A stretch of 64,000 bases of DNA from Candidatus Moraniibacteriota bacterium (GTDB lineage Bacteria > Patescibacteriota > Minisyncoccia > Moranbacterales > UBA1568). Shown one piece after another: positions 2,728 to 63,785 of the stretch; position 1 is the stretch's first letter; every line of letters begins with the position of its first letter. Location: the NCBI GenBank assembly GCA_963778555.1, contig CAVZUR010000004.1, positions 26,190-90,189 on the forward strand, given 5' to 3'. The notes beneath the pieces were generated by a model. The model was not told the origin of the DNA and did no database searches. It saw only the letters and a list, made by a program, of their open reading frames with translations. Made by a program: the position numbers and the translations under genes.

Positions 2728-4650
2728 TCAGGGTGAGCGTTCAAAGATGGCAGCTGTTCCGCTGGAATAGATTTTTGAAAAAGCATCGGTCTTTTCGAAC
2801 TGCGTGCTGTCATAGAGAGGATTGACGACGAGGTAACGGACGCCTGTCTCCCGATAACACCGTTCGCCGCCGGAGGTGTTCGGCGTCGAAATCATGGCAA
2901 GTGAGCAGCGTTCTCGCCGATTGCCGCCTTCTTCATAGCGGCTGAAGAGTCCGCGCGAGAGCGGATAGCCGTAATCGCGGTGGAAGAAGAGCTTCATCCA
3001 CGCATCAGCGGAGAGATAATTGTGGTCCTTCAGGATCATCTCGTTATCGGTGTGGTCGGCGAGGTATTCGGTCGCCGCAAAGGTCTGGACGAGTTCGCGT
3101 GAGCGATCTTTTGCTGTGAGTGAGCTCGCATTATCGAAGGAACCAGAGCCGATGAGAAAGACAGTAACCGCGGCAAGCGTCAGGGCTCGCAGGGAAATAG
3201 GGAGGGTCACGCGCTGCCAGAGCGAGGCCGTGAGCCAGGCGAGAGCAAAGGCCGCTGCAAGTGCGGTTGGATAGGCGAGGTAGCTCCCGATCCGGCTCGA
3301 GGGGATGTCGAGGAGGAGAAGATGTGGGTACATGGCCATGACCAAGAGTATGCCGCCCCAGCCAAGGATGAAGGCGCTCTCGATTGGCCGGCGGCGGATG
3401 GCGAACACGGCGAGCGTCAAGCCATAGAGTCCGAGCGCGACTTTGCCCATGCCGATAGAGTTAGAGACTTGGAGGAAAGACAGTCCCGTGCGGGTGGTTT
3501 TCGTCGGGGTGCCGATGGCGGAATCAATGGCGGCGGTGTCGAGATAGGTGGGGATGGCGACGAGACCCATGAAAAGCCCAGCGATGACGATGAATGACAA
3601 GACCAACGGCGAGACAGCAAGACGCATCCAGTCGCGGATGAAATCCTGCTTCATGCTCATGAGGCTGAGCGCCGTGATGGCAATCGTGCCAGCAAGGATG
3701 AAGGCGAGGACGAGGGTCGAAAGGTGATGGGTATAAGCGAGGATGAACGCGAAGAACAGTCCGAGTGCAATGAAGACGGCCCGCCGCTCGAAGAGCCCGC
3801 GGTAGAAGAGGAGAAGCACGGCGGGGATGAAGAGATTGCCAAAGATATTGCCGACGACTCCGCCAGTCACAAATTTTGTCTGGGGCGAGGCGAGCGCGAA
3901 GAGGGGGCCCAGGATGAGAAGTGCGAAGAGAGCGACATATTCGGGATGAATGTCTTTGGCAAATGGCTGAGCCAATCGAAAGGCGAGGGCGACGACCACA
4001 AGAACAGAAAGGAGATTGATGATATGCAGGAACAGGATCGGGAAGGCGCTCGTCATTGCGAGGCCCGAGAGCTCTGAGAGCAAGGCAAACGGCAAGTGCT
4101 CACCGATGATGAAGTCTGCGATGGCTCGTGGCGGTGCAACGCTCGCTACACCGGTTGCTGGATCGATGACGATCTCGATCTTCTCATAGTTTGGCAGCAA
4201 CTTTGTCTCGCGGATCATCTCGGACCAGTACATGTGATGGCCGAGATCGGTCGCGGTCGGCAGGATGTTCGGTGCGAGGTAGATAGTCCGGATGAAGAGA
4301 GTGAGCGCACAGAGCACCAAGAAAATACGGAGGCCCTGCTTCGTGAAAGTCGGTACGGATTCGATTATCGTCCCAGAGAGCGGTTTCCGTGCCCAGAGCA
4401 TTGCTCCACCGATGAGGGTGAGGAAGAGGAGTGAACCACCGATATACGGCACTGAGAGCGGTAGTCCGACACGGCCGAGGAGGAGCATGATAAGATCGAC
4501 GGCCGCAAGACTCGTGAGGAAGCCGAAGACGATCTCTTCGAGTCTGGAAAATGTACGGCCGAATATCGCCCGCCACCAGATGAAGCCGGGGACGAAGAAG
4601 GCACCAACGAGGGCAAGGAGAAAGGAGGATGTGTGGAAGAGAGTGTCCAT
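2728..4650 (-). CDS. Polytopic membrane protein, putative GT-C-fold glycosyltransferase (ArnT/PMT/YfhO-like) with a C-terminal extracytoplasmic domain
   Basis: 640 aa with at least 12 predicted TM helices and a hydrophilic C-terminal region of about 150 aa. It is the last gene of a glycosylation operon (4 nt from the upstream GT4). Confidence 0.55.
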   Translation of the reverse strand: MDTLFHTSSFLLALVGAFFVPGFIWWRAIFGRTFSRLEEIVFGFLTSLAAVDLIMLLLGRVGLPLSVPYIGGSLLFLTLIGGAMLWARKPLSGTIIESVPTFTKQGLRIFLVLCALTLFIRTIYLAPNILPTATDLGHHMYWSEMIRETKLLPNYEKIEIVIDPATGVASVAPPRAIADFIIGEHLPFALLSELSGLAMTSAFPILFLHIINLLSVLVVVALAFRLAQPFAKDIHPEYVALFALLILGPLFALASPQTKFVTGGVVGNIFGNLFIPAVLLLFYRGLFERRAVFIALGLFFAFILAYTHHLSTLVLAFILAGTIAITALSLMSMKQDFIRDWMRLAVSPLVLSFIVIAGLFMGLVAIPTYLDTAAIDSAIGTPTKTTRTGLSFLQVSNSIGMGKVALGLYGLTLAVFAIRRRPIESAFILGWGGILLVMAMYPHLLLLDIPSSRIGSYLAYPTALAAAFALAWLTASLWQRVTLPISLRALTLAAVTVFLIGSGSFDNASSLTAKDRSRELVQTFAATEYLADHTDNEMILKDHNYLSADAWMKLFFHRDYGYPLSRGLFSRYEEGGNRRERCSLAMISTPNTSGGERCYRETGVRYLVVNPLYDSTQFEKTDAFSKIYSSGTAAIFERSP

Positions 4651-10104: not shown

Positions 10105-11702
10105 GGACTATGGAGACCTTGATGAGAGTGGTTCGTAGCTGGCGAAGCGATCCGCAGGTCCTTTTTGGAGGGATAGCTTTTGCCATCGCTAGCGCCGGCA
10201 TCCTGCTGTCTCTCGTTGAAGCTTTTCCTTTAGCGCCGATTGATCTCATATTTTTTAGCACGCTTCTGTTTCTTCTCTCGCTTTATCGGCCGAACTGGGG
10301 TTTTCTTTTCTTTCTCGCCATAATCTCGTTTGAAACCGTCAACGTTTTTCCGGAGAGCTTTGGTTTCTCATTGCGTCCCTACCAGTGGCAGTTTCTCATT
10401 CTCGTCAGCGCCCTCAGTATCCGAATCATATCCAGGAAATCGTCCTGGCCACTTTTCCGTTTCCAACCGCTCGACGGATGGCTCGCGCTCATTCCTGTCG
10501 GCGCTTGGGTTTCTGGAGTCCTCTCGGGCGGGGAGGGGATACGGCTCGCAGCAATTGTTACGTCATTCTATACGCTCTACCTCCTCAGCCGGGTCTTTTT
10601 CACAACTTCCCGGGATATTCAGATTGGCGGGGCAGTCTTCTTTGCTGGTGGACTGGCGACACTGCTTTTCGGTCTCATCCAAAACATCGCTTTTGAAAAG
10701 GGGATACTGCTCCAGATGATTATGCCAGGTCGACCCAATGCTATGCTCGCGGAGCCAGACTGGTTCGGATTTTTTGCTGTCATTCTGCTCGTATTCACCT
10801 ATACGGCGCTCCAGCGCGCTCTCCAGAGTGAAGAGCGGCAGGCGAGTCTCCAGCTCCCTCCAATTATTGGTTTCGCTCTTCTTCTCATTCCGATAAGTAC
10901 CGCACTCCTTCTCACCGTCAGCCGGAGCGCCTGGCTCGCGGGCTTCATGGCTCTTATCGTCTGGACTATCAGTCTGGTCATCATCCAAGGCAGGGAAGCG
11001 TTGCGTTCCATCCTTCAAACAGCTGAGCTTGGCGCCATCGCTTTTGCCATCGCTCTCTTTCTCGCGGTCGATCTTCCTCTGACGCGCTTCGATCTCTTGA
11101 ACCGGGCAGAAAGCACAGCGACCGGTTTTCAGGAAATAACCGTGGCATGCTCGGAACCGGTCGATCTGCCGGTTCGAATCCAAACGCTCGCCGAATTATC
11201 GACGTATGACTGCCGGCACATCGCGCTTGAAGAACGGGCAGCGCTTCGAGCTGCGGGACTCTCAATCCAACTCGTACAGCGTCCGGACCCGAATATTGTC
11301 ATTCGGAGCGAGATCTATCGCCAGACATGGGCTCAAATCCGCACCCATCCATTCACAGGCATCGGGTGGGGTAATATTGGTGATATCCTCGGGCGTGATG
11401 AGCGGGGCGCGGCCTATAACACGAGCAATGTATGGTTTGAAACATTGCTCGGCAGCGGCCTCCTCGGCCTCCTCGGTCTGGCCGGAGCGCTGTGTTCGAT
11501 TCTCTGGCAGGGCGTTCGAATGATACTGCGACCAGCGGCCCATGAACAGTCAATGGCGCTCTCATTGCCCGCAGTTTTTTCAATCGTGACCGCTTTTGTC
11601 ATTTTCAATCTTTTTAATGCCGGCTTGCTCATCGGTCTCGTCTGGGTACTCTTCGCAACGGTCCCGGTTCTGCTTCCGCAGACTAAGCGGAAAAACGTAT
11701 GA
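10101..11702 (+). CDS. O-antigen ligase/polymerase-like (Wzy_C) polytopic membrane protein
   Basis: Many TM helices and the Wzy_C-type motif SRSAWLAGFMALIVW with a large periplasmic loop. ATG at 10101 overlaps the upstream TGA (ATGA); the track's longer N-terminus is not supported. Confidence 0.65.
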   Translation: MRTMETLMRVVRSWRSDPQVLFGGIAFAIASAGILLSLVEAFPLAPIDLIFFSTLLFLLSLYRPNWGFLFFLAIISFETVNVFPESFGFSLRPYQWQFLILVSALSIRIISRKSSWPLFRFQPLDGWLALIPVGAWVSGVLSGGEGIRLAAIVTSFYTLYLLSRVFFTTSRDIQIGGAVFFAGGLATLLFGLIQNIAFEKGILLQMIMPGRPNAMLAEPDWFGFFAVILLVFTYTALQRALQSEERQASLQLPPIIGFALLLIPISTALLLTVSRSAWLAGFMALIVWTISLVIIQGREALRSILQTAELGAIAFAIALFLAVDLPLTRFDLLNRAESTATGFQEITVACSEPVDLPVRIQTLAELSTYDCRHIALEERAALRAAGLSIQLVQRPDPNIVIRSEIYRQTWAQIRTHPFTGIGWGNIGDILGRDERGAAYNTSNVWFETLLGSGLLGLLGLAGALCSILWQGVRMILRPAAHEQSMALSLPAVFSIVTAFVIFNLFNAGLLIGLVWVLFATVPVLLPQTKRKNV

Positions 11703-17840: not shown

Positions 17841-18836
17841 TTAAATGAGAACGGATTGAATGAAGTCAGGGTAGCCCTTGACAAAATCTTTGATACTCAT
17901 GACCTCCTTGCCTTCTAATTGGAGGGTCTGGAGAAAGATGACGCCACTCCCAGTAACAATGCCAATCTCCTCGCCGATCTCAAGCACTGTTCCAATCGGT
18001 TGAGACAGAGCAGGCGCCGTCTTCTGCAGTGTAATCGCATGAAACTTGATCCGCAGGACATCATCGGCCCCGCGCCTCCAAAAGGAAAAAATTCCGGGCC
18101 AGGGGTGGAGGCCGCGATAGTGATTATAGATCTCGCTTGCCTCGGCGGACCAAAAGATACGTCCGTCTTCGCGGTCGATGAGCTGGCAGAGAGTGACGCC
18201 ATCAGTGGCCTGCGGTGTCGCGGTGAGTGTGCGCGTAATCCACAGCGGCAAGGTCCGGACCAACAGATCGGCACCGAGCGTTGCTAGTCGCGCCAGCAGT
18301 TCCGCACCACGCTCATCAGGTCCGATCGGAGTCTGAGCAAAAGCGATGACATTTCCTGTGTCCATGCCTGGGTCGATCTCCATAAGCGTGACGCCGGTTT
18401 CAGTATCACCTGCCATGAGCGCGTTGGCGACCGGCGAGGCACCGCGCCAGCGCGGGAGGAGTGAGGCATGGATATTGACAGAGCCGAAACCAGGCAATGC
18501 AAGCACATCGGGAGGTAAAAGCTTGCCGTATGCTGCGACCACAAGGATGTCTGGCTTCCAAGCTCGAATAGTCTGAATCGCCTCAGCGTTCAGTTTCTCC
18601 GGCTGGTACACCGGCAGACCATGCCGGAGAGCACGTACCTTCACTGGAGAAGCCGTGAGCTCCTGTTTTCGGCCAGTTTTCCGATCGGGCTGTGTCACGA
18701 CGCCCACGAGATGGTAGGAGGCCTGGATTAGCGCTGCCAAGGCCGTTTCAGCAAACTCGGGCGTCCCCATGAACACCACAGAGATTTGTGGGGCTTTGAA
18801 GGTCGTCGGCGACAGAGTATCGGTTTTAGAGAGCAT
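17841..18836 (-). CDS. fmt: Methionyl-tRNA formyltransferase
   Basis: VVFMGTPEFAETAL...HASLLPRWRGASPV and a C-terminal Fmt domain. The real start is either ATG 18836 (11-nt overlap with def) or the GTG of VVFMGTPEF; the track's long N-terminus overlaps def and is not credible. Confidence 0.8.
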   Translation of the reverse strand: MLSKTDTLSPTTFKAPQISVVFMGTPEFAETALAALIQASYHLVGVVTQPDRKTGRKQELTASPVKVRALRHGLPVYQPEKLNAEAIQTIRAWKPDILVVAAYGKLLPPDVLALPGFGSVNIHASLLPRWRGASPVANALMAGDTETGVTLMEIDPGMDTGNVIAFAQTPIGPDERGAELLARLATLGADLLVRTLPLWITRTLTATPQATDGVTLCQLIDREDGRIFWSAEASEIYNHYRGLHPWPGIFSFWRRGADDVLRIKFHAITLQKTAPALSQPIGTVLEIGEEIGIVTGSGVIFLQTLQLEGKEVMSIKDFVKGYPDFIQSVLI

Positions 18837-19296
18837 AGACCTTTTTGTTTTTTTGTTTTTTATAGCGGTCACAGATAAGCACGCCGTCGAGATGATCGAG
18901 CTCGTGCTGGAGGCAGATGGCGAGGAGACCGTGCGCTTTGAGTTTAGCCTGAGCACCGGCATCATCTACATATCGGACAGTGACTGACTGGGAGCGTTCG
19001 ATGGCAAAAAACTCACCCGGGAGACTCAGACAGCCCTCTTCGAACAAAATTTTTCCTCTGGAAAAGCTGGTGATTTTCGGATTGATGAAGTTCCGGATGA
19101 CGCCGTCAATCTCAATGACGCAGATCCGGAGGTTGTGGCCAATCTGGGGGGCTGCCAAACCGATGCCGTCGGCCTTTCGCATCGCAGCGAGCATCTCAAG
19201 CAAGAGCGCCTGTACATCGGGTGCGCGCGGATCTTTCACATTCTGGTTCTCGGCATGGAGGATTGCATTCTCGGCGCCGGTGACAATGGAATACAT
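18826..19296 (-). CDS. def: Peptide deformylase
   Basis: Motifs GIGLAAPQIG, EGCLSLPG and HELDHLDG. Confidence 0.85.
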   Translation of the reverse strand: MYSIVTGAENAILHAENQNVKDPRAPDVQALLLEMLAAMRKADGIGLAAPQIGHNLRICVIEIDGVIRNFINPKITSFSRGKILFEEGCLSLPGEFFAIERSQSVTVRYVDDAGAQAKLKAHGLLAICLQHELDHLDGVLICDRYKKQKNKKVYAL

Positions 19297-19307: not shown

Positions 19308-21251
19308 TTATCCGTGCAGTGACAAGGGATCAGCAACGATTCGGACCGGTTGCTCGAGCGATCCAAGAAAGCGGTGCAGTGCATCGGGGAAAGCTTCCTT
19401 CGACGGATAGCGGATAAGGACATGGTAGCGGTTTTTCTTGTTAAAAGGCAAATAGCGGGGGAGGATTTCGAGCGTCGGGAGCGCGAGTGATCGGAGGGCG
19501 GATTCAGTTCTTTCAGCGATTGAAAGCGAGCTGGCGTCCGGCGTGGGAAAGCACTCAAGCCGAATGAATCGATAGTCGGGCGGGTAGTGAAGGATTCGGC
19601 GTTCTTCGAGGAGCGGCAGGGCGGTTTGGCTCAGGTCCTCATGAGCCCAAATCGTCCAATACTTCGCCTCCGGCTCGAAAGTTTGAACGATGAGTTTTCC
19701 ATCTTGGGTCAGTTTTCCGCCGAAGCGCCGCAATTCGCGCCAGAGACGTTCTTCTGACTGGAAGTCGGGGTAGAATAAGCCCTGGTCCGGTTCGATCAGT
19801 CCAATGACACCCATGGGGGGCAGCGGAAGGCTATAGGCGGATTCATAGGTGGCGACAATTATTAGTGGTCGTGCACCGGAATCATTCAACTGGGCAACAA
19901 TGTTCTGAAAATCGCGTTTCACGCCGAGTGTATCACGATCAATGCGGATGACACGATCAGCAATCCTGTGCTGAGACAGCGCGCGGACAATCGCTTCAGT
20001 ACCCGCCCCAAAACTTTTAAAATGCATGTGGCCGCACTCGCGACAGGCCGGGAAAAGTGCTGAGCGAAAGCCGCAGGCGAGACAGCGGTAGCGGGCATCC
20101 TTGGTCTCGGTCAGCGCCGCGGAGCAATCTGGGCAACGCAGCGGCGTCTGGCACTTGGCGCAGATCGAAAAGCGCGCCAGTCCACGCTGTTTGACGAGTA
20201 TGAGAACAGATTCCTGTCGAGTGCGGGCGGAACAGACGGCCTGGATGAGATCGGGGGTGAGTGTCTGGCTCGCCCCGCCGCGCTTGTAGGTTTTGCGAAG
20301 ATCGATCGCGACAAGCGGGCGTCGAACTGAGAAAGAGAACGGGGTACCGCTGACGACCGCTTCAGGTCTGAAATATTCGATACCAGGTGCGACGGAAAGT
20401 TTGAAACATGGGATGCGTTGTTCCCGCGCGATAGTTTCAGCAATCGCGACAGCATCGTAGCGAGGCGCCATTTCCCACTGCGTGAATGAAATTCTTTTCT
20501 CTGAATCAATGATGGCAATCGCTCCCAACTTTTCTAGGGGGGCAAAAATCGCCTGGCGCGTTCCGACGATGATGTCGAGGGCACCTTCTTTGAGCGCGGT
20601 GTGAATCAGGTACTGCTCTTTGCTGGTCCGGTGGCTCGAGAGGCAACGAATGACCGCTTTCGGTAGTACTTGCGCTAGTCGCCCGGCGTAGAGTTCTGCC
20701 GCAAGGATTTCTGGCACTAGTATGAGCAAGGGTTTTTTCTCACTGAAAGCCGTTTTTGACAACTTCAGGAGTCGTTCGAACAGATGACTATCGTCCAGGA
20801 GACCCTCGGTCAGTATGCGAGAAATGCGTTTTTTCTTCTGTTGCGTAGATTGATTCGTTCGTGCGATTGCGGCTTTCGATTTGGCCGCCTTGACCTCTCC
20901 TGGTATGGAACGCGGTGCGTGTTGAAGTGGGAAAAAGAGTTTGAAGACGATACCAAGCGGCGTATACAATATATCGCTCAAGTGCCACGCGAGGGCGATT
21001 TGGGATGCTGTCAGAAAACCCGGCAGGATAACCGGCCCGACGAATTTCAGCCAGGGAGGAACGGGGCTGGGTAATTTTTCACACGCCAGTACGGCACCCG
21101 TGAGGTTGCGTTTGCCGAAGGATATCGCGACAAGGGATCCGATGGGTATCGGAATGGGCGAGGCATAGCTAAAACGCGGGTCATGCCGGCCAAAGAGGGG
21201 AGTGAGCGGGACGACCTCGATGCGATAGAGGGATGATAGGGATTTCGGCAT
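19308..21251 (-). CDS. priA: Primosomal protein N' (PriA) homologue with degenerate ATPase motifs
   Basis: PriA N-terminal DNA-binding region and Cys4 zinc ribbon (CAKCQTPLRCPDCSAALT...CLACGF...CRECGH) in the priA-def-fmt arrangement. By-eye alignment to E. coli PriA gives LDDSHL in place of GSGKT, DSEK in place of DEEH, and RELRRFGG in place of QVAGRAGR. Confidence 0.7.
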   Translation of the reverse strand: MPKSLSSLYRIEVVPLTPLFGRHDPRFSYASPIPIPIGSLVAISFGKRNLTGAVLACEKLPSPVPPWLKFVGPVILPGFLTASQIALAWHLSDILYTPLGIVFKLFFPLQHAPRSIPGEVKAAKSKAAIARTNQSTQQKKKRISRILTEGLLDDSHLFERLLKLSKTAFSEKKPLLILVPEILAAELYAGRLAQVLPKAVIRCLSSHRTSKEQYLIHTALKEGALDIIVGTRQAIFAPLEKLGAIAIIDSEKRISFTQWEMAPRYDAVAIAETIAREQRIPCFKLSVAPGIEYFRPEAVVSGTPFSFSVRRPLVAIDLRKTYKRGGASQTLTPDLIQAVCSARTRQESVLILVKQRGLARFSICAKCQTPLRCPDCSAALTETKDARYRCLACGFRSALFPACRECGHMHFKSFGAGTEAIVRALSQHRIADRVIRIDRDTLGVKRDFQNIVAQLNDSGARPLIIVATYESAYSLPLPPMGVIGLIEPDQGLFYPDFQSEERLWRELRRFGGKLTQDGKLIVQTFEPEAKYWTIWAHEDLSQTALPLLEERRILHYPPDYRFIRLECFPTPDASSLSIAERTESALRSLALPTLEILPRYLPFNKKNRYHVLIRYPSKEAFPDALHRFLGSLEQPVRIVADPLSLHG

Positions 21252-21407: not shown

Positions 21408-21968
21408 ATGCTTATCACGCGCCGTTTGTTTGTTGGAATTCCATTGTCAGCCAGGCTCCAGAAGCGGCTTGAGCTAGAAGGAGCGGCCTGGAAGCATCTC
21501 CCGGTTATCCTGACACGGCCTGGAAATTTTCATATCACGCTGATGTTCCTTGGTTTTGTCAAAGAGGAAGAGATACCCCGCATCATTGAGGCGCTTGAGG
21601 GAGCGACGATTGATATCGAGCCATTTGAGATTCGTTTATCGGAAATCACTGCCGATCCAGCGAATCATCCGACCACGGTCTGGCTCTCGGGTGAGACATC
21701 AACCGAACTTGTTGCTTTGCGCAACGCCGTGGCAGCTTCGCTCGATTACCTCACACCGGAATCCAAAAGCTTCCGTCCACATGTGACCCTGGCCAAGATC
21801 CGCCGCGGCCAGTTTGAAACGCTCGAAACCAAGCCGGATTTCGCCAAGTCGCTCCATATTATCGAGCCGGTCGAGACGATTGCACTCTTTGAAAGCACGC
21901 TGGAGAATGGCAAGCGTGTGTACTTGCCGCTCGCTGATTTTCCGCTCACCGGCGAGGGTGGCGAATAG
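21408..21968 (+). CDS. thpR: 2H phosphoesterase, RNA 2',3'-cyclic phosphodiesterase (ThpR/LigT-like)
   Basis: Two H-x-T-x motifs (HITLMFLG and HVTLAKI) about 80 aa apart; start taken at MLITRRLFVGIPL. Confidence 0.6.
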   Translation: MLITRRLFVGIPLSARLQKRLELEGAAWKHLPVILTRPGNFHITLMFLGFVKEEEIPRIIEALEGATIDIEPFEIRLSEITADPANHPTTVWLSGETSTELVALRNAVAASLDYLTPESKSFRPHVTLAKIRRGQFETLETKPDFAKSLHIIEPVETIALFESTLENGKRVYLPLADFPLTGEGGE

Positions 21969-21978
21969 GCGCAGCCCT

Positions 21979-22680
21979 ATGAATATTTTTGGTGTTGACG
22001 TCAGCAATCGCTCCCAGACAGATATCCTGGACCAGATTGAAGTTTGGCTCTTAAGCGCTCGCTTTCACCGTATTGTGACCATCAATCCGGAATTCCTTTT
22101 GCTCGCATTGAAAAATAAGGCATTCCATGGCGCTCTCCTTTCAGCTGATCTCCGGGTGGCTGATGGCGTCGGTCTTTATCTCCCATTCTGGCTGGGCGGT
22201 GAGAAACTCATCGAGCGTGTACCGGGTGCGGATCTCTTACTGGAAATACTTCACCTAGCAGATAAGCACCGACTCTCCGTCGGCCTCTTGCTTGCGCCGG
22301 ACGGTCTGTCATCGTACGAAGAAATACAAACAACACTCGCATGAGCGCTACCCGAATCTCGATGTCCAAAAATTCTCCGCTGAATATCTTTCCTCACCAC
22401 TAAAACCTATTCCCTATACCCTAGTTTTTTGTAACTATGGCGCGCCGCTCCAGGAAATTATCCTCGCTGGTTTACGGCGGTCGCCAGGGAATCTCCGGCT
22501 CGCAATGGGCGTCGGCGGAGCTTTCGATTTTCTGACGGGAAAAATACCCCGAGCACCAAAGTTTCTTCGCTCGATCGGTTTTGAATGGCTGTGGCGGCTG
22601 TGGCAACAACCCAAGCGTTTCAGCCGCATCTGGAATGCGGTCATTATCTTCCCGATTAAAGTCCTCTGCCAAAAATAAAT
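21979..22680 (+). CDS. tagA: WecB/TagA/CpsF-family glycosyltransferase (UDP-ManNAc transferase-like), frameshifted near 22340
   Basis: N-terminal part MNIFGVDVSN...ILDQI...RIVTINPEFLLLA...ADLRVADGVG ends at 22344. The C-terminal family region continues in another frame to 22680 (NYGAPLQEIILAGL...AMGVGGAFDFLTGKIPRAPKFLRSIGFEWLWRLWQQPKRF). One indel at about 22335-22345 joins the two. Confidence 0.6.
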
Positions 22681-49016: not shown

Positions 49017-50969
<1,953 letters not shown>

Positions 50970-51524: not shown

Positions 51525-52421
51525 TTAGCTGACGATAACTTTGGCTGGCCGCACCAGCTTGCCTTTGATCTGGTAGCCTTTCTGAACAACTTTTTCGATT
51601 TTCAATTGTTTGCTCGCTTCCCCTTCAGTGGCTTTGTGATCGAGCGCTTCATGACGGGTCGGATCGAATAGGTCCCCTGGTTTCACCTCGAGCGGCTCGA
51701 CACCGTAGTTTCGGAGCACATCCTCGAATTGCTTTTCGATATAGGTGATGCCCGTGACCCAAGGACTGCCGGCCGCTTCGGACGGGACATGCTCAGTGGC
51801 AGCGTGGAAATTATCGAGGACCGGGATGAGTTCGGTGACGATCTGAGCCGAGAGATGACCGTACAGTTCACGTTCGTCATTCTTCACCCGCTTCTTGTAA
51901 TTTTCGTAGTCGGCCCGGAGACGCTGCACATCCGGGAGGTATTGGCTTTGCGCATAGATGTTGGCCGCCGTTTCGACGAAGCGCTTCACCCACGGACGAT
52001 AATCACTCACTGCCTGGACTTCTTCCCGCGTCTGCCACTGGTATTCACTATGTTCATCGGAAAGAGTGATAGCGCCACCCCGATAGAGGACAAGGAAACC
52101 CTGCATCAGCGTTTGTTTGCCCGGCTGGCCGATTGCCTCCGTATCGACGACACCGACGATTTCATATTTCAGTGCATGACCGGCCTCTTCGCGGATCTCG
52201 CGCTCGAAGGCGGCTGCCGGCTCTTCTCCAGCGTCGATGCGGCCGCCGATGAAGCCCCAGTTCTCCTCTCGACCCGGCTTCGAATCCTTCACGAGAAGGA
52301 ACTTCTGAATCATCGGATCGAACAAGATAGCCTTCTGTCCGACTTGGTACTGCTCCATGGCTACGGATTGATTTTTTTTCATAGGGATATTGGGTTTAGA
52401 CGTATATGACAAGAAAGACAA
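51525..52421 (-). CDS. grpE: Nudix-hydrolase–GrpE fusion protein (nucleotide exchange factor with N-terminal Nudix domain)
   Basis: One 298-aa frame. Residues about 20-150 form a Nudix domain with a canonical Nudix box GGRIDAGEEPAAAFEREIREEAGH. Residues about 150-298 are GrpE (RADYENYKKR...LIPVLDNFHAA...GYQIKGKLVRPAKVIVS). It overlaps the hrcA 3' end by 26 nt. Confidence 0.8.
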   Translation of the reverse strand: MSFLSYTSKPNIPMKKNQSVAMEQYQVGQKAILFDPMIQKFLLVKDSKPGREENWGFIGGRIDAGEEPAAAFEREIREEAGHALKYEIVGVVDTEAIGQPGKQTLMQGFLVLYRGGAITLSDEHSEYQWQTREEVQAVSDYRPWVKRFVETAANIYAQSQYLPDVQRLRADYENYKKRVKNDERELYGHLSAQIVTELIPVLDNFHAATEHVPSEAAGSPWVTGITYIEKQFEDVLRNYGVEPLEVKPGDLFDPTRHEALDHKATEGEASKQLKIEKVVQKGYQIKGKLVRPAKVIVS

Positions 52422-57196: not shown

Positions 57197-58567
57197 ATGG
57201 CCGCTTCCGCATCCAAAACTGAACACGTGCGCATCCCGCCGCACAATCTTGAGGCCGAGCAATCGGTTTTGGGTTCGCTCATGCTCGACAAGGACGCGAT
57301 CATCAAGGTCGCTGACATCGTCAAGGTCGGCGACTTCTACAAAGACGATCACAATCGTATCTATCAGGCGATGCTCGATTTGTATGAAGAGCGCGAACCG
57401 ATCGACGTCCTCTCGCTCGCGAATCGGCTGGAAGAGCAAAAAACGCTCGAAGCAGTCGGCGGTTCCGGCTATCTCGCCTCGCTCGTGAACTCGGTCCCCT
57501 CAGCCTCAAACATTGTCCACTACGCCAAGGTCGTCCAAAAAAAAGCACTTCTGAGGCGACTCATCGGCGCGGCCTCGCAGATTGTCGAGATGGGCTACGA
57601 TGATTCCGAAGATGTGCAGAAAGTGCTTGACGACGCTGAGCAGAAGCTCTTCGCCATCTCGCAGAAATACCTCAAACAGGATTTCATCCCCATCAAGACG
57701 ATTCTGGAAGCCGCCTTCGACCGTATTGACGAGCTCCACAAGAATGATCAGACGATGCGCGGCGTACCGACGCATTTCCCCGATCTCGACCATATCCTCG
57801 CCGGCCTCCAAAAATCTGACCTCATTATCCTCGCGGCCCGTCCCGCCGTCGGCAAGACATCGCTCGCGCTCGATATCGCCCGCCAGGTCGGCGTGTATGC
57901 GAAAATTCCAGTCGGTATTTTCTCACTGGAAATGTCTTCGGACCAGCTCATCGACCGCATGCTCGCGGCGCAAGCCGGAGTCGATCTCTGGCGCCTGCGC
58001 ACCGGAAAACTCGGGAGCGAAGGCCCGGGCAACGATTTTGAGAAAATCTCGGACGCAATGGGCATTCTTTCCGAGGCGCCGATTTTCATCGATGACTCAG
58101 GCAGTCTGAACATTATGGAAATGCGCACCATGGCCCGTCGTCTCCAGGCGGAGCATAATCTCGGTCTCATCATCATCGACTATCTCCAGCTCATGGAGGG
58201 ACGCTCACGGCAAGGCGACAATCGCGTGCAGGAGATTTCGGAGATCTCGCGTGGTTTAAAGCAGCTGGCCCGTGAGCTCAATATCCCCGTCATCGCCCTC
58301 TCACAGCTTTCCCGCGCCGTCGAATCGCGCCCTGACCAGCGACCCAAGCTATCCGATCTCCGCGAATCGGGGTCCATCGAGCAGGACGCGGATGTCGTCA
58401 TGTTCCTCTACCGCGAAGACCGCGTCCGGCCCGACACCCCGAACAAGAACATTGTCGACATCATCATCGCCAAGCATCGGAACGGCCCCGTCGGCCAGAT
58501 CCAGCTCTACTTCGAGGAGAATGCCACCTCTTTCAAATCGCTCGAACGGTCGCACGCACCGGCATAA
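57197..58567 (+). CDS. dnaB: Replicative DNA helicase DnaB
   Basis: N-terminal domain and RecA-like core with Walker A ARPAVGKTSLALDIA, Walker B IIIDYLQLM, 456 aa. Confidence 0.9.
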   Translation: MAASASKTEHVRIPPHNLEAEQSVLGSLMLDKDAIIKVADIVKVGDFYKDDHNRIYQAMLDLYEEREPIDVLSLANRLEEQKTLEAVGGSGYLASLVNSVPSASNIVHYAKVVQKKALLRRLIGAASQIVEMGYDDSEDVQKVLDDAEQKLFAISQKYLKQDFIPIKTILEAAFDRIDELHKNDQTMRGVPTHFPDLDHILAGLQKSDLIILAARPAVGKTSLALDIARQVGVYAKIPVGIFSLEMSSDQLIDRMLAAQAGVDLWRLRTGKLGSEGPGNDFEKISDAMGILSEAPIFIDDSGSLNIMEMRTMARRLQAEHNLGLIIIDYLQLMEGRSRQGDNRVQEISEISRGLKQLARELNIPVIALSQLSRAVESRPDQRPKLSDLRESGSIEQDADVVMFLYREDRVRPDTPNKNIVDIIIAKHRNGPVGQIQLYFEENATSFKSLERSHAPA

Positions 58568-58625
58568 TCCCAAAAAAACACACGGGTGGATTCATTCCGG
58601 CCCGATGCTGTATGCTGCATGATAT

Positions 58626-59216
58626 ATGCGATATCCGAAAGCCTTCGAATCCCTCATCCATCATTTCTCCAGCCTTCCTTCGATCGGACCGAAGATGGCT
58701 GAGCGTCTCGTACTCTATCTCTTCAAACAGGACGAGGAAAAGCTCGTGGCTTTCGCTGAGAGCCTCGAGGGATTGAAACATCTGTCGAGTTGCCGCGAAT
58801 GTTTTTACATTTCCGAATCCGAACTCTGCGGTTTCTGTAGCGACGACTCGCGTGACCAAACCACCATCTGCGTCGTGGAAGAGCCCCTCGATGTCATCGC
58901 CATCGAGCGCACGGGCAGCTACCATGGCCGCTACCATGTGCTCGGTGGAGTCCTTGATGCCGGCACAGCAGATGAGACACTCCGCGTAACAGAACTCCAG
59001 CACCGCATCACGGATTCATCAGTCGAGGAAGTGATTCTCGCCACCAATCCGACGACCGAAGGCGATATGACCGCCTATTTCCTCAAGACCAAACTCGCGG
59101 CATTCCCCGTGAAAGTGACTCGGATTGCCCGCGGGATGGCGACCGGCGGCGACATTGAGTATGCCGACGAACTCACCCTCTCATCCTCTCTTGAGAATCG
59201 CAAAGCACTGAATTGA
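58626..59216 (+). CDS. recR: Recombination protein RecR
   Basis: Helix-hairpin-helix N-terminus, C4 zinc finger (CRECFYISESELCGFC) and Toprim domain, 196 aa. Confidence 0.9.
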   Translation: MRYPKAFESLIHHFSSLPSIGPKMAERLVLYLFKQDEEKLVAFAESLEGLKHLSSCRECFYISESELCGFCSDDSRDQTTICVVEEPLDVIAIERTGSYHGRYHVLGGVLDAGTADETLRVTELQHRITDSSVEEVILATNPTTEGDMTAYFLKTKLAAFPVKVTRIARGMATGGDIEYADELTLSSSLENRKALN

Positions 59217-59261: not shown

Positions 59262-59567
59262 TTAAGCGGCAATCTTCGTAATTTCAATTGCCGTGTAGTC
59301 CTGGCGATGCCCATAACGGGTCATTTCACGCTTCTTGGCTTTGTGCCGGATACCGGTCACCTTCGCGTGGCGGCCATGGGCGACGACTTTCCCTTCAACA
59401 TGGGTCTTTACGGCCGGAACGCCGATCTCAATCGCGCTTTCGTCCCCGATAAACAGGGTCTCAAATTTCAGGGTATTACCGGGCTCAGCCTCAAGCTTTT
59501 CGACTTTGACCACATCGCCTTCCGCGACTTTGTATTGCTTTCCACCGGTCTTGATAACAGCGATCAT
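59262..59567 (-). CDS. rplU: 50S ribosomal protein L21
   Basis: MIAVIKTGGKQYKVAEGDVVKVEKL...GHRQDYTAIEITKI. In the ORF track it is fused to the upstream alaS frame, but it starts at its own ATG 59567. Confidence 0.85.
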   Translation of the reverse strand: MIAVIKTGGKQYKVAEGDVVKVEKLEAEPGNTLKFETLFIGDESAIEIGVPAVKTHVEGKVVAHGRHAKVTGIRHKAKKREMTRYGHRQDYTAIEITKIAA

Positions 59568-59638
59568 AGGTCTCGAAAAAAATGATACTGCCTGAGTATA
59601 GCCCGAGAATGAGCCATTGTCAATCCAGCTACCCGGCT

Positions 59639-61406
59639 TTATTCCAAAATAGCTTTTATTCGTCTGACGCCCGCCGAAGATGCCTCTTCCTTGATGATCT
59701 TGAAGCTGTCCAAACGCCGCGATATCAGCCGTCGTGACCACATGCGGGCCGCCGCAGAGCTCCTGGGAATAGGCAGTCCCATCGGGTCCGACCACCCGGT
59801 AGACAGTCACCTTTTCGGGGTATTTCTCCCAAAAGCTCCCTTCCACCCCAGCGGCCTTGGCGGCAGTCTTGTCCATGATTGTGGTACTGACGGTCGCTTT
59901 GGCTTCGATTGCCGCGTTCACAAAGGCTTCGACCCGATCCAGCGTCTCGCGCGGCACTTTTTCAGGATACGTGAAATCAAAACGGGTGCGCTCAGCGGTG
60001 ATATTCGAGCCCGCCTGATGCACTTCGCCGCCGAGTTCCTGGCGTAGGGCTGCCAGCATGAGGTGCGTCGCTGTATGGAACGCCGTCACTTTAGCACTCT
60101 TATCTGCTAACCCGCCTTTGAATTTCCCGACGCTCGCCGTACGGGAGAGATTTTGATGTTTCTTGAATTCTTCACGAAACGCTGATTCATCAATCATGAT
60201 GCTATGCTCTTGGGCGAGTTCTCGAGTCATTTCAAGCGGGAAGCCGTATGTCGCGAAGAGATCAAAGGCATCTTTGCCCGAGAGCGTGCCAGCCTGCGCG
60301 CGGCGACCCAACTCCTTGAGTCCCTTTGAAAGCGTTGCTCGGAACTTGGTTTCTTCCCGGTTCAACTCATCAATTATCCGTCCCCCGTTGTCACGGATCG
60401 ACGCATAGACGGTTTCGAATTTCACCATGAACAGCTTTGCGATTGCAGCGATGGCCGGCTCCTCATATCCCATTTTATAGAATTCTCGAATCGCCCGTCG
60501 AATGAGTCGGCGCAGAATATATCCCTGATCGACATTCTTCGGAACGATGCCGTCGGCAATGATATGAGTAGCAGCCCGAAGATGATCGGCAATAATACGC
60601 GCTGAACGTTCGACATACCGTTCGGTGGTTACGATGCCGCGGATCGCCTCAAGCACATCGGCAAACGCATCGGTCTCATAGACGTTCTTCAGCCCGTTCA
60701 GCGTGACGATGGTGCGCTCCAGCCCCATACCAGTATCCACGCAGGGGGCAGGCAACCTATCAAGCGTGTCGGCATCGATGCGGTTGTACTGCATGAAGAC
60801 ATTGTTCCAAATCTCCATCCATGCCTTGGGGTGAGACTCTTTATTTCCGACTGGCGCGCCGTCCCCGACCCAGTAGAAAATCTCCGTATCCGGCCCGCAG
60901 GGACCAGTCGGACCAGCGGCCCACCAATTGTCTTCGGCTGGGAGATAGGCGATACGCTCTTTGGGCATCCCTAAGGATTCCCAGATCTTGGCCGACTCTT
61001 CATCACGCGGTGCATTCTCATCACCTTTAAAGACGGTGACGGAGAGTTTATCAGGAGAAAGTCCAAGCCATTGCGTGTCAGTCAGGAATTCCCAGGACCA
61101 AGCGATCGATTCCGGCTTGAAGTAGTCGCCCAATGACCAATTGCCGAGCATCTCAAAGAAGGTGAGGTGGGTGTCATCGCCGACATCATCAATATCGCCC
61201 GTCCGGACGCATTTTTGCACGTCAGTGATGCGCTTCCCCATTGGATGCGGCTTGCCGAGGAGGTACGGAACGAGCGGCTGCATGCCGGCCGTATTGAACA
61301 AGACTGAAGGGTCATTTTCGGGTACCAGCGGCGCCGACGGGATGATAGCGTGACCTTTGGTCTTGAAAAATTCCAGATATTTCTGGCGGATGTCATTCGT
61401 CTGCAT
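59639..61406 (-). CDS. alaS: Alanyl-tRNA synthetase, short form lacking the C-terminal C-Ala/DHHA1 region, with one frameshift near 59705
   Basis: Class II AlaRS catalytic core (MQTNDIRQKYLEFFKTKGH...FNTAGMQ), tRNA-recognition and editing domain (HTATHLMLAALRQELG...CGGPHV). After ...TTADIAAF the conserved FKIIKEEASSAGVRRIKAILE* continues in the +1 frame and stops at 59639-59641, about 590 aa in total. Confidence 0.75.
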
Positions 61407-61416
61407 AGAGGAAAAG

Positions 61417-61635
61417 CTAGCGGATGGCTCGTTCGACACCTTTCTTGATATCACGCGAGAGCTTCCATGACAACAGTTGGTCGATCGCTTCGATCGCACC
61501 GGCGGCATCGATTGATCGCGCTTCGAATTGTCTCCCGATGGCCTTGATTGAGGAGCGGAGAAAACTCGTGTCCGAGATGTTCGGACTCTTCAAGATTTCG
61601 GGCATTACCTGCGAGACAAATGTGTCAGCCTTCAT
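61417..61635 (-). CDS. Small hypothetical protein (72 aa)
   Basis: ORF 11 nt upstream of alaS; no motif recognised. Confidence 0.3.
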   Translation of the reverse strand: MKADTFVSQVMPEILKSPNISDTSFLRSSIKAIGRQFEARSIDAAGAIEAIDQLLSWKLSRDIKKGVERAIR

Positions 61636-61934: not shown

Positions 61935-63785
61935 TTATTCATCTTCACTCGAAATAATACGGACTGTCACACGCTCGGGATCATCCGGAATCGTTGCGAT
62001 GAATATCTTTGGTTTGAATTCAACCTGAAGGCGCTTGATTTCCGGATGAGACGAGAGGAAGTTCCGAATGCCATCTTCATTGAGTCCGAGGAGTTCCGAC
62101 TTCAATCCTGCTTCGTTCAGTGCAGAACGGAACAGCACCTTGCTTTCAACAGTCAGATCCACTCGTTTCGCCTCGAAATTCGAGAGCACGGCGCCGTAGT
62201 CGATCACATACTCAGCCGGTCGCAGCAGCACCCCGCCCGACTCTACCGTCTCCTTGTCAAGGATACCCCGGATGGCGGTTTCGGAGATGATAAACCCCTT
62301 CACTTGGAAACGTGCCTCATAATCGAACTGGGTCGCCGCCGTCCCGACCGCGGGCGCCACAGGCGTCCCGACGAGCGAGGTCTGAAAGGATGGTTCGAGC
62401 ACAGCTTCTCCTGCTTCCAATCCCTGTGCAAAGTCCGCCATGACCGATTTTTTCGCCTCGTCTTCAGCAGCAGTTTTGGCGCGCTCGATATCATTTGCAC
62501 TCACACTCGAAGGCTGATCCGAGTCTCCATCACTCCCCCCAGTCAAGGGTGTTTTCACTCTCGCTGTGATCTTTTCATATTTCGGACCGCCTTTGAAACC
62601 CGGTATCATGAAAGTTCCTGATCCGATATTGAAGCTGGTTCCCGCACTATCCGCAACGACGCGCGCATCAATCGTACCCGGTACAGATTTGCCATCGACT
62701 GTTTTTGTACCCGGTACGGTTAAACCCTCCACCAGCCGATAGAGCTTGCCATCAGAAGTCTCAAACCGAGTCGTCGCCACCAACGATTGTGCCGCATCAC
62801 TGTATTCGTTGAGAATCGTAATGAGACCGCTCGCCTTGGCCCGATTTCCAGAATCTTTTCCGGTTGCCTCCTGTGAAAATCGGATAGTCTTTTCTGCCTC
62901 GACATAGCGGGCGGGAACATTCACTGCCCCAGTCGCCGCGTCCGCCGTCCCAACAAGCGAGAGCTTGACGGACTGTACGGCTGTTTGCGGCTCGATGGAA
63001 ATGACGGCTTCCGGTCGCAGGAAAAAATAACCAGCAAGAACCGATGCCGCCAAAAGACTTGCGCCGACTCCCAACCACAGTCCTGGCCGGCCAACGGAAT
63101 GCGCTTCATTAACGCGTGCCGGCGCCGAAACTGCTACCGTTTGAGGTGCAGTCGCGGGAGCCATAGTCGGACGATTCGGCATACCTTTGCTCTCGAATAG
63201 TCGCCGAAGCTTCTCTTTGCGGGCATCAGGGACAGCAGTGGGTCTCTCGCTTTGCGCTACTGCACGAGATTGTTGGGTCGGGCGCTTGGAATTGAGCGCA
63301 GTCTGAACAATCGGTGACGCATTCCTCACCCGGAGCGGTAGCGGAGGAGTAGGTGGAGTAATTATCCCCTCTTGGGGAATCAGCGTCGTTTGTGCGGCAT
63401 AAAAGCTGGACGAGCCGATTTCATCGGAACGTCGGAGACCGACCGGCTCTTCTTTCTCAGGCATCGGTATAGATTCGCCGTGTTTGACGGTAAAGCGCGC
63501 TGCCATCTCCGGACGGTTCTCGCGGAGCACGGCGTCTTGATACTCCTGAACCCGCAGTCCCGACTTCTCTGCCAGACGCATACCCTGTTCGTCCTGACTC
63601 ATCACTATCACTTTCTTGCCGAGCTTGTCTGCCTCGCGACCCAAGAGCTTCAGATTGATGATGCTTTGGAGAATAAGTGCACGCTTTGGGAATACGAAAA
63701 TATTTTCCGCTTCGCTCGAACGCCGCAACCGGCCGACAGCGCTGATAATCTCTTCGTCTGATTCGATATAATGCGTCTCTGGCAT
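61935..63785 (-). CDS. Large single-pass membrane protein with N-terminal cytoplasmic domain, Pro-rich linker and large extracytoplasmic region (hypothetical)
   Basis: 616 aa; N-terminal domain of about 90 aa; TM PGLWLGVGASLLAASVLAGYFFL; Ala/Thr/Gly-rich beta-rich ectodomain. Confidence 0.45.
   Translation of the reverse strand: MPETHYIESDEEIISAVGRLRRSSEAENIFVFPKRALILQSIINLKLLGREADKLGKKVIVMSQDEQGMRLAEKSGLRVQEYQDAVLRENRPEMAARFTVKHGESIPMPEKEEPVGLRRSDEIGSSSFYAAQTTLIPQEGIITPPTPPLPLRVRNASPIVQTALNSKRPTQQSRAVAQSERPTAVPDARKEKLRRLFESKGMPNRPTMAPATAPQTVAVSAPARVNEAHSVGRPGLWLGVGASLLAASVLAGYFFLRPEAVISIEPQTAVQSVKLSLVGTADAATGAVNVPARYVEAEKTIRFSQEATGKDSGNRAKASGLITILNEYSDAAQSLVATTRFETSDGKLYRLVEGLTVPGTKTVDGKSVPGTIDARVVADSAGTSFNIGSGTFMIPGFKGGPKYEKITARVKTPLTGGSDGDSDQPSSVSANDIERAKTAAEDEAKKSVMADFAQGLEAGEAVLEPSFQTSLVGTPVAPAVGTAATQFDYEARFQVKGFIISETAIRGILDKETVESGGVLLRPAEYVIDYGAVLSNFEAKRVDLTVESKVLFRSALNEAGLKSELLGLNEDGIRNFLSSHPEIKRLQVEFKPKIFIATIPDDPERVTVRIISSEDE

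Follow-up and report, generated by a model that had tools for sequence, protein, structure and literature searches.

This work concerns the priA gene of a 64,000-nucleotide stretch of DNA from a Candidatus Moraniibacteriota bacterium (GenBank assembly GCA_963778555.1, contig CAVZUR010000004.1, positions 26,190 to 90,189 of the forward strand; hereafter, the window), and reports that its product is a PriA orthologue that keeps the PriA fold, has lost the motifs of the ATPase and helicase motor together with all its near relatives, and is under purifying selection. Based on these findings, we propose, at a probability of about 0.72, that the window PriA is a selected pseudohelicase acting as a passive scaffold that recognizes replication forks and recruits the replicative helicase DnaB, a role that is well supported but that we infer from the modules retained. 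An earlier sequence-only reading of the same DNA had claimed by eye that this PriA homologue lacks the catalytic motifs, and phmmer, MAFFT and hhalign now agree with it.

The identity of the protein is supported by both sequence and fold. The NCBIfam PriA models match it with a best E value of 5e-68, and phmmer aligns its residues 147-618 with the Klebsiella pneumoniae and Escherichia coli PriA structures at E = 2e-32, the identity to these canonical proteins being 20-23%, while its score against TIGR00595, 198.4 bits, lies below the equivalog cut-off of 230.35. The AlphaFold2 model, built from 61 sequences, is confident (predicted local distance difference test, pLDDT, 91.4; predicted template modelling score, pTM, 0.91), and the nine best Foldseek matches to it in the PDB are all PriA, headed by the fork-bound E. 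coli protein (8fak_H, E = 1.7e-41, template modelling score 0.77) and followed by 6dcr, 6dgd, 4nl4 and 4nl8. The N-terminal region and the collinearity with PriA, both asserted by the sequence-only reading, are borne out by a PF17764 match above its cut-off and by the fold match to 8fak_H; the zinc-binding insertion is kept as well, not in the 'Cys4' form that had been described, but with eight conserved cysteines, all of which align with E. coli C436 to C479 and which are predicted to form two zinc sites. Across the 61 sequences C364, C367, C373, C376, C390, C403 and C406 are invariant, and C393 is found in at least 90%. Also retained is the aromatic-rich loop after motif II, SFTQWEMAPRYDA, in which S255, Q258, W259, P263 and Y265 are invariant within the clade of close relatives defined below; the corresponding loop of E. 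coli PriA forms cross-links, at the junction of the fork, with the template of the lagging strand (PMC5175346). In the place of the winged-helix domain of longer PriAs the window protein has only a variable linker (residues 111-145), and this domain is missing from many other short PriAs, canonical ones included. The C-terminal domain aligns with that of E. coli PriA, and no match to Pfam PriA_C (PF18074) was found in the window protein.

Within this retained framework, every residue set for ATP binding and hydrolysis is lost, as judged from the alignments. HMMER against K. pneumoniae PriA supplied the pairings for motifs I, II and VI, and MAFFT with E. coli PriA and 60 relatives those for all motifs, by which the canonical GVTGSGKT of motif I (Walker A) is replaced by GLLDDSHL, DEEH of motif II (Walker B) by DSEK, GSATP of motif III by LSVAP, LNRRG (NRRG) of motif IV by VKQRG (KQRG), GTQMLAKG of motif V by ATYESAYS, and QVAGRAGR of motif VI by ELRRFGGK or RFGGKLTQ, depending on the aligner. 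Besides the P-loop, DEEH has thus lost its His and its second acidic residue, motif III its SAT, motif V its Gln and Lys-Gly, and motif VI its Gln together with the two arginines. The pairings that phmmer makes with the K. pneumoniae and E. coli PriA structures (GITG-SGKT with GLLDDSHL, DEEH with DSEK, QVSGRAGR with ELRRFGGK) are reproduced to within one residue by MAFFT with E. coli PriA, and the local alignment by hhalign of the clade profile with E. coli PriA (E = 1e-38) starts only past the Walker A site. Thus LDDSHL and DSEK stand where the sequence-only reading had put them, opposite GSGKT and DEEH, and QVAGRAGR is lost as it had stated, although its register for motif VI, RELRRFGG, was off by one or two residues, which leaves the conclusion unchanged; the degeneration of motifs III, IV and V is seen here in addition to the I, II and VI that it had covered.

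A hidden or shifted P-loop was considered and rejected, as a regular-expression scan of the whole protein finds no GK[ST] and no DExx and the three aligners reveal none; likewise, the profile hidden Markov model, profile-profile and structure-guided alignments place no GxGKT P-loop or DExH box in the protein. A Pfam scan, even at E <= 1, finds no DEAD, Helicase_C or ResIII domain in it and matches only the PriA 3′ end-binding domain, while canonical relatives carry them all. In the model, the former P-loop site keeps a strand-loop-helix topology, with a strand at 146-150 and a helix from 154, wherein the loop is only three residues long and Asp153/Asp154 stand at the helix start. It is accordingly very hard to credit that the protein is still an ATPase, binding ATP at a non-canonical site such as the GGK(L)T at motif VI or with residues supplied by a partner. 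The Gly-Gly-Lys in RRFGGKLT, the invariance of its K513, and the proposal, noted in a review (PMC5778457), that E. coli PriA has a further site binding nucleotides more weakly speak for such an activity, whereas no P-loop, catalytic acidic pair, motif III, motif VI arginines or Q-motif equivalent remains, the phosphate-binding loop has given way to the short Asp-capped one, and a single Lys-to-Arg change kills the E. coli enzyme (PMC4504706). Because the motif loss is far more complete than in E. coli K230R or in the PriA of Deinococcus radiodurans, the window protein is very probably ATPase-dead.

The losses are not an idiosyncrasy of one sequence. A word-indexed protein search returned 29 clusters at 32-60% identity (BLASTP), 28 of which were aligned with the window protein to give a 29-member clade; all 29 clusters are without helicase Pfam domains, and matches below about 29% identity are canonical PriAs with the full domain set. 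The window protein aligns end to end with the 28 homologues, the open reading frame (ORF) is full-length in all 29 members, and the Walker A lysine is missing from every one (29/29). The orthologues share the substitutions throughout (28/28), namely ID[SAPC]EK, SVAPG, ATYE and RRFGxKL, with FPEE in the three most divergent members. The ratio of nonsynonymous to synonymous substitution rates (dN/dS) is 0.12-0.20 where dS is measurable, that is, in 8 of the 28 pairs only, since dS is saturated in most. Therefore, with 28 homologues sharing the losses at such low ratios, the gene is to be regarded as a selected pseudohelicase and not as a decaying gene, and priA is under purifying selection.

That the gene might instead be a functionless relic, drifting to loss in a reduced genome, can be given next to no weight. 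The genome is indeed reduced, and the dnaK and wecG genes of the window are visibly broken, but priA has an intact reading frame in 29/29 clade members at 32-61% identity, its dN/dS is that of a constrained gene, its cysteines and many other residues are invariant, and its model is confident; a pseudogene was rejected on account of the intact orthologues, the dN/dS and the invariant cysteines. An apparent truncation in one relative (L005, a 531-aa ORF) was also rejected, as a 100-N scaffold gap mimics a disruption there. This gap lies within priA at about 11560-11660 of that locus and has duplicated flanks, with IAMIEPDQGLFYPDFQSE present twice. A related PriA (P0306) is encoded on a 1.29-Mb contig, consistent with a reduced genome.

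Conservation within the clade is unevenly distributed. Few regions vary as much as the former Walker A site, whose entropy is about 2.0-2.1, whereas the segment of motif II and the aromatic-rich loop (0.69-0.87) and that of motifs V-VI (0.58-0.80), the most conserved of all, lie well below the 1.19-1.37 of the whole protein. Such a pattern raises the alternative of a neofunctionalized PriA, wherein the former ATP cleft has been rebuilt as a site for a protein partner, another ligand or a DNA feature, and PriA would have taken on work in place of, or besides, classical replisome reloading, for example protecting or clamping forks or regulating DnaB. The conservation of the rebuilt segments IDxEK, QWEMxPRYDA and EPDQGLFYPDFQSEERLWRELRRFGxKL, with K513 invariant, exceeds what simple decay would lead one to expect. 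On the other hand, canonical PriAs also show high conservation of the aromatic-rich loop and of PDFRxxER, which in them serve to bind DNA and to build the lobes (PMC5175346); the gene still stands in its ancestral operon, and no new domain has been gained, so that we regard this alternative, the main one, as unlikely, if worth keeping in mind.

The genomic context identifies the gene as the priA of its genome. In the window it is followed by def and fmt (Table 1) and flanked upstream by divergent genes for a LigT-like phosphoesterase, a WecG/TagA glycosyltransferase and gltX, in ordinary housekeeping DNA of about 54% GC. The order priA-def-fmt is kept in five relatives (L006, L008, L011, L012 and L013). 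In L006 and L008, whose PriAs are 52% and 36% identical to the window protein, gltX, a hypothetical gene, wecG and ligT lie on one side and priA-def-fmt-rhodanese on the other, and the same arrangement is found in L011, a distant Moraniibacteriota genome; L013 has a degenerate PriA of a 'Patescibacteria group' bacterium directly upstream of def-fmt, and L012, a canonical, motif-bearing Saccharibacteria PriA, is likewise in the priA-def-fmt arrangement. Because this synteny is common to degenerate and canonical relatives, the degenerate gene sits at the ancestral priA position, and it is a true priA orthologue in a Moranbacteria-like genome (Patescibacteria, candidate phyla radiation). A second priA-like locus was sought in the 64-kb window and none was found. 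Scans for tRNAs and Rfam families gave two tRNAs in the window and nothing relevant to priA.

These observations bear on whether the window copy could be an accessory paralogue, namely a specialized or regulatory duplicate of a canonical, active PriA encoded elsewhere. The inspection covered 64 kb of this genome and, for each relative, no more than 22 kb of surrounding DNA, which leaves room for such a gene, yet the window copy occupies the very position that the canonical Saccharibacteria PriA has, no canonical PriA named Moranbacteria is among the matches listed, the decay of the motifs is graded across the lineage as expected of a single-copy orthologue, and the window holds no second copy. 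The duplicate is thus a distinctly improbable explanation.

The proposed scaffold would operate as follows. The 3′ end-binding domain and the aromatic-rich loop would recognize abandoned forks, together with the zinc module and those surfaces of both lobes that face the DNA, and PriA could then serve as a static platform to recruit DnaB, directly or via a loader and the single-stranded DNA-binding protein (SSB). PriA itself would not unwind the lagging-strand arm, and any unwinding of the nascent lagging strand would be left to another helicase, or to none. A scaffold is the best explanation because the fork-recognition modules are kept and an intact dnaB, the presumed client, is encoded 36 kb away, where it adjoins recR (the pair spanning 57197-59216 on the plus strand). 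No dnaC/dnaI, dciA, priB or ssb was recognized among the approximately 50 window ORFs scanned.

Several points weigh against this proposal. A canonical priA, which is unlikely, or a compensating helicase may be encoded elsewhere in the genome; the conserved, remodelled motifs II and V-VI, with E251, W259 and K513 invariant, could signify a new activity or ligand; and the lack of ATPase activity, the fork binding and the DnaB recruitment are all read from sequence. In this organism DnaB may be loaded by DciA, by a DnaC/I-like protein or by no loader at all. Moreover, because helicase activity is needed in some E. coli pathways, a scaffold-only role would imply a narrower range of restartable substrates.

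Table 1. Positions of the priA gene, its parts and associated genes, in window coordinates.
Feature	Position	Strand	Basis and remarks
priA orthologue, proposed pseudohelicase	19308..21251	minus	ATG start, 647 aa + stop; NCBIfam PriA models, PDB PriA, Foldseek
3′ end-binding domain, residues 1-110	20922..21251	minus	PF17764, 26.1 bits against cut-off 22.7 (residues 26-108); pLDDT 87-97; clade entropy 0.84-0.98
Variable linker, residues 111-145	20817..20921	minus	pLDDT 47-69; entropy 2.5-2.6, most variable region; gapped against E. coli PriA
RecA-like lobe 1, residues 146-300	20352..20816	minus	Motif pairings, model, fold match; motifs Ia (LVPEI) and Ib (GTRQA) kept
Former Walker A/motif I site, residues 146-158, ILTEGLLDDSHLF	20778..20816	minus	Aligned to LLAGVTGSGKTEV of E. 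coli PriA; no P-loop
Motif II remnant (IIDSEK) and aromatic-rich loop SFTQWEMAPRYDA, residues 245-270	20442..20519	minus	DEEH aligned to DSEK
RecA-like lobe 2 with zinc-module insertion, residues 301-530	19662..20351	minus	Model, fold match; motif IV KQRG
Cysteine-rich region, residues 361-410	20022..20171	minus	Alignment; 8 Cys, two predicted zinc sites
Motif V and VI remnants, residues 466-516, VATYESAYS ... EPDQGLFYPDFQSEERLWRELRRFGGKL	19704..19856	minus	Alignments
C-terminal domain, residues 531-647	19311..19661	minus	E. coli PriA C-terminal domain aligned up to 624 (hhalign) or 618 (HMMER); pLDDT mostly >90
def, peptide deformylase	18826..19296	minus	Pfam PF01327, E = 7e-43; 11 nt downstream of priA, same operon
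fmt, methionyl-tRNA formyltransferase	17841..18965	minus	Pfam PF00551 + PF02911; L006 orthologue 332 aa; listed ORF start probably too far upstream (over-extended)
dnaB, replicative helicase, presumed PriA client	57197..58567	plus	Pfam DnaB_C, 354 bits, and DnaB N-terminal domain; Walker A intact (AARPAVGKTS)

PriAs without a motor are distributed beyond the window clade. With the clade profile as query, a search of 1.84 billion cluster representatives revealed a graded continuum of motif decay and not an isolated clade; its top hits, together with references, gave 152 full-length sequences. GK[TS] is missing at the Walker A position in 76 of the 152, and 72 of these 76 keep all eight cysteines. 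Among the Walker-A-less sequences motifs I and VI are always lost, while motif II (EEQD, DEAHD) and motif V (IGTQMxLKG) are variably kept, and erosion has gone furthest in the window subclade. When a profile built from 50 diverse representatives without Walker A was searched next, the named matches were Candidatus Moraniibacteriota/Moranbacteria and 'Patescibacteria group', and look-ups of clusters added Candidatus Azambacteria, beside Moranbacteria, to the Walker-A-less PriAs. Therefore, the trait is not peculiar to the window genome, but is lineage-wide in Moranbacteria and present in other Patescibacteria. In a rough neighbour-joining tree the window subclade is nested inside the Walker-A-less radiation, a tree too crude, and too prone to long-branch attraction, to be a basis for counting independent losses. 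Other short PriAs show an unusual GPxxSGKT / DEEQ / GRxxR variant and may still be active.

A further group came to light through one sequence (P0102, L009 6285-8309), which led to about 70 PriA clusters of Candidatus Bipolaricaulota/Acetothermia (P0392-P0464). Their P-loop has given way to LLF---SRxRWE and their motif VI is reduced to GLxGRL with one arginine, while DEEQ, SAAPS, NRRG and most of motif V are retained. From their motifs they are probably another pseudohelicase lineage, and one that is apparently undescribed in the literature. A broader and more tentative idea, which we offer as a speculation with the odds clearly against it, is that loss of the PriA motor recurs across Moranbacteria, Azambacteria, other Patescibacteria and Bipolaricaulota, and that in the window subclade the cleft has been rebuilt (IDxEK, an inserted W259, and the invariant K513 in RRFGxKL) as a conserved new interface that would hold PriA locked in its fork-bound state and recruit DnaB directly.

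Some other genes of the window have disturbed reading frames. The dnaK gene (49167-50951, minus strand) is broken, as tblastn with E. coli DnaK finds segments 1-37, 43-99, 114-507 and 507-600 in frames -3, -2, -1 and -3, respectively; this essential chaperone gene thus has three frameshifts or more, which mean either an assembly indel error or a pseudogene. Directly upstream of it, on the same strand and at higher window coordinates, lie grpE and hrcA, and the GrpE ORF (51525-52421, minus) has a NUDIX hydrolase domain at residues 28-147 ahead of GrpE at 163-298, which is either an unusual fusion or the artefact of an over-extended ORF. The WecG/TagA gene (21814-22678, plus) is split by a frameshift into overlapping ORFs in different frames (21814-22344 and 22292-22678); its orthologue is single and intact in L006 (231 aa), L008 (228 aa) and L011 (266 aa). 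At 59262-61508 (minus) a 748-aa ORF runs from alanyl-tRNA synthetase (alaS) catalytic and SAD domains in frame into ribosomal protein L21 (rplU), the L21 part starting with its own Met at residue 648 (MIAVIKTGGKQYKV), and as the approximately 50 residues before L21 look out-of-frame, a frameshift is likelier than a true fusion. The disturbed frames of dnaK, wecG and alaS-rplU suggest an assembly with indel errors, or else a genome with pseudogenes; the priA finding is unaffected by them, because priA is intact and collinear with all its homologues. For two long ORFs, 2728-4650 (minus, 640 aa) and 61935-63785 (minus, 616 aa), a Pfam scan at E <= 0.001 gives nothing.

Regarding taxonomy, relatives both close and more distant were named Candidatus Moraniibacteriota or Moranbacteria by submitters independent of one another, and NCBI taxonomy places Moraniibacteriota within the Parcubacteria group of Patescibacteria. 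Three third-party metagenome-assembled genomes from one assembly project (L001, L003 and L005) are labelled 'uncultured Bdellovibrionales', while L002 and L004, with like synteny, are labelled 'Candidatus Moraniibacteriota', and one relative (P0025) is labelled Undibacterium sp. The Bdellovibrionales label was set aside in view of the Moranbacteria labels elsewhere and of wall-polymer genes, LCP (LytR-CpsA-Psr) and TagA-type wecG among them, that do not point to it; judged by database labels, it and the Undibacterium label are likely mislabels.

The findings signify that in entire lineages of candidate phyla selection maintains PriA even though its ATPase has been erased, which strengthens the view that the indispensable core job of PriA is fork recognition and replisome recruitment, and not unwinding. 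The window organism may have a naturally minimal restart system, with a short PriA that has no winged-helix domain and no motor, and apparently with no PriB or DnaT; should the cleft indeed have been rebuilt as an interface, it would be an ATP-independent minimal restart primosome for reduced genomes. There is also a practical consequence. Close relatives of the protein (P0004 and P0025) carry the NCBI annotation 'hypothetical protein', because their scores fall below the TIGR00595 cut-off (for the window protein, 198 against 230 bits), and with such scores and labels automated reconstructions would wrongly score replication restart as absent.

Compared with canonical PriA (4NL4, 6DGD, 8FAK; TIGR00595), the window protein has the same 3′ end-binding domain, two lobes, eight-cysteine region, aromatic-rich loop and, as the alignments suggest, C-terminal domain in collinear order, but is without the ATPase/helicase motifs and the winged-helix domain. 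That a scaffold-only PriA is viable is illustrated by the ATPase- and helicase-dead E. coli mutants priA300 (K230R) and K230A/D. These are laboratory point mutants reliant on PriB and DnaT, whereas the window protein has suffered a natural loss of multiple motifs. To our knowledge, no PriB or DnaT is known for the window organism. In E. coli, K230R alone abolishes the ATPase and helicase activity of PriA (PMC4504706, PMC5778457), and in priA300 primosome assembly persists, growth is near wild-type and restart is supported, in keeping with the statement of the sequence-only reading that E. coli PriA can restart replication without helicase activity, while the activity is required in some pathways, namely PriA-PriC and Mu transposition (PMC5778457). 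The Bipolaricaulota/Acetothermia PriAs likewise have the P-loop deleted or replaced, but unlike the window protein they keep DEEQ, SAAPS and NRRG, and they form a separate lineage, which the rough tree joins to a canonical PriA.

In function, the window protein is best modelled on the PriA of D. radiodurans, a pseudohelicase that has no ATPase or helicase activity and that binds single-stranded DNA, fork DNA and DnaB (Lopper, Boone & Morrow 2015, PMC4504706), and Deinococcus is listed as the sole exception in a 2017 review (PMC5778457). The two have in common the loss of the Walker A lysine, a poor Walker B, and a gene kept under selection across the lineage. They differ in that the Walker A of D. 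radiodurans PriA is still recognizable, with Lys replaced by Arg, beside a poor motif II/Walker B (PMC4504706), whereas the window protein has no P-loop left at all and has lost motifs III, IV, V and VI as well; in that the window protein, known here from sequence and model, is short (647 aa) and without a winged-helix domain; and in phylum (Patescibacteria against Deinococcus-Thermus). That the motor was probably lost independently of the Deinococcus loss is suggested by the difference in phylum and by the occurrence, elsewhere among the candidate phyla, of PriAs that are canonical or nearly so (P0100 and the GPxxSGKT forms), an argument from phylum and relatives and not from a joint phylogeny. 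Our literature search, with most subscription journals outside its scope, found no report of PriA pseudohelicases in Patescibacteria/candidate phyla or in Bipolaricaulota. The sequence-only reading had thought a naturally ATPase-dead scaffold PriA both plausible and notable, and its plausibility has gained from the purifying selection and the retained fold and DNA-binding modules, while its novelty as a kind yields to the D. radiodurans precedent. The PriA pseudohelicase as a kind has been known since 2015, and the window protein, which belongs to a wide trend that seems not to have been described, represents a probably independent, phylogenetically distant and far more degenerate case of it.

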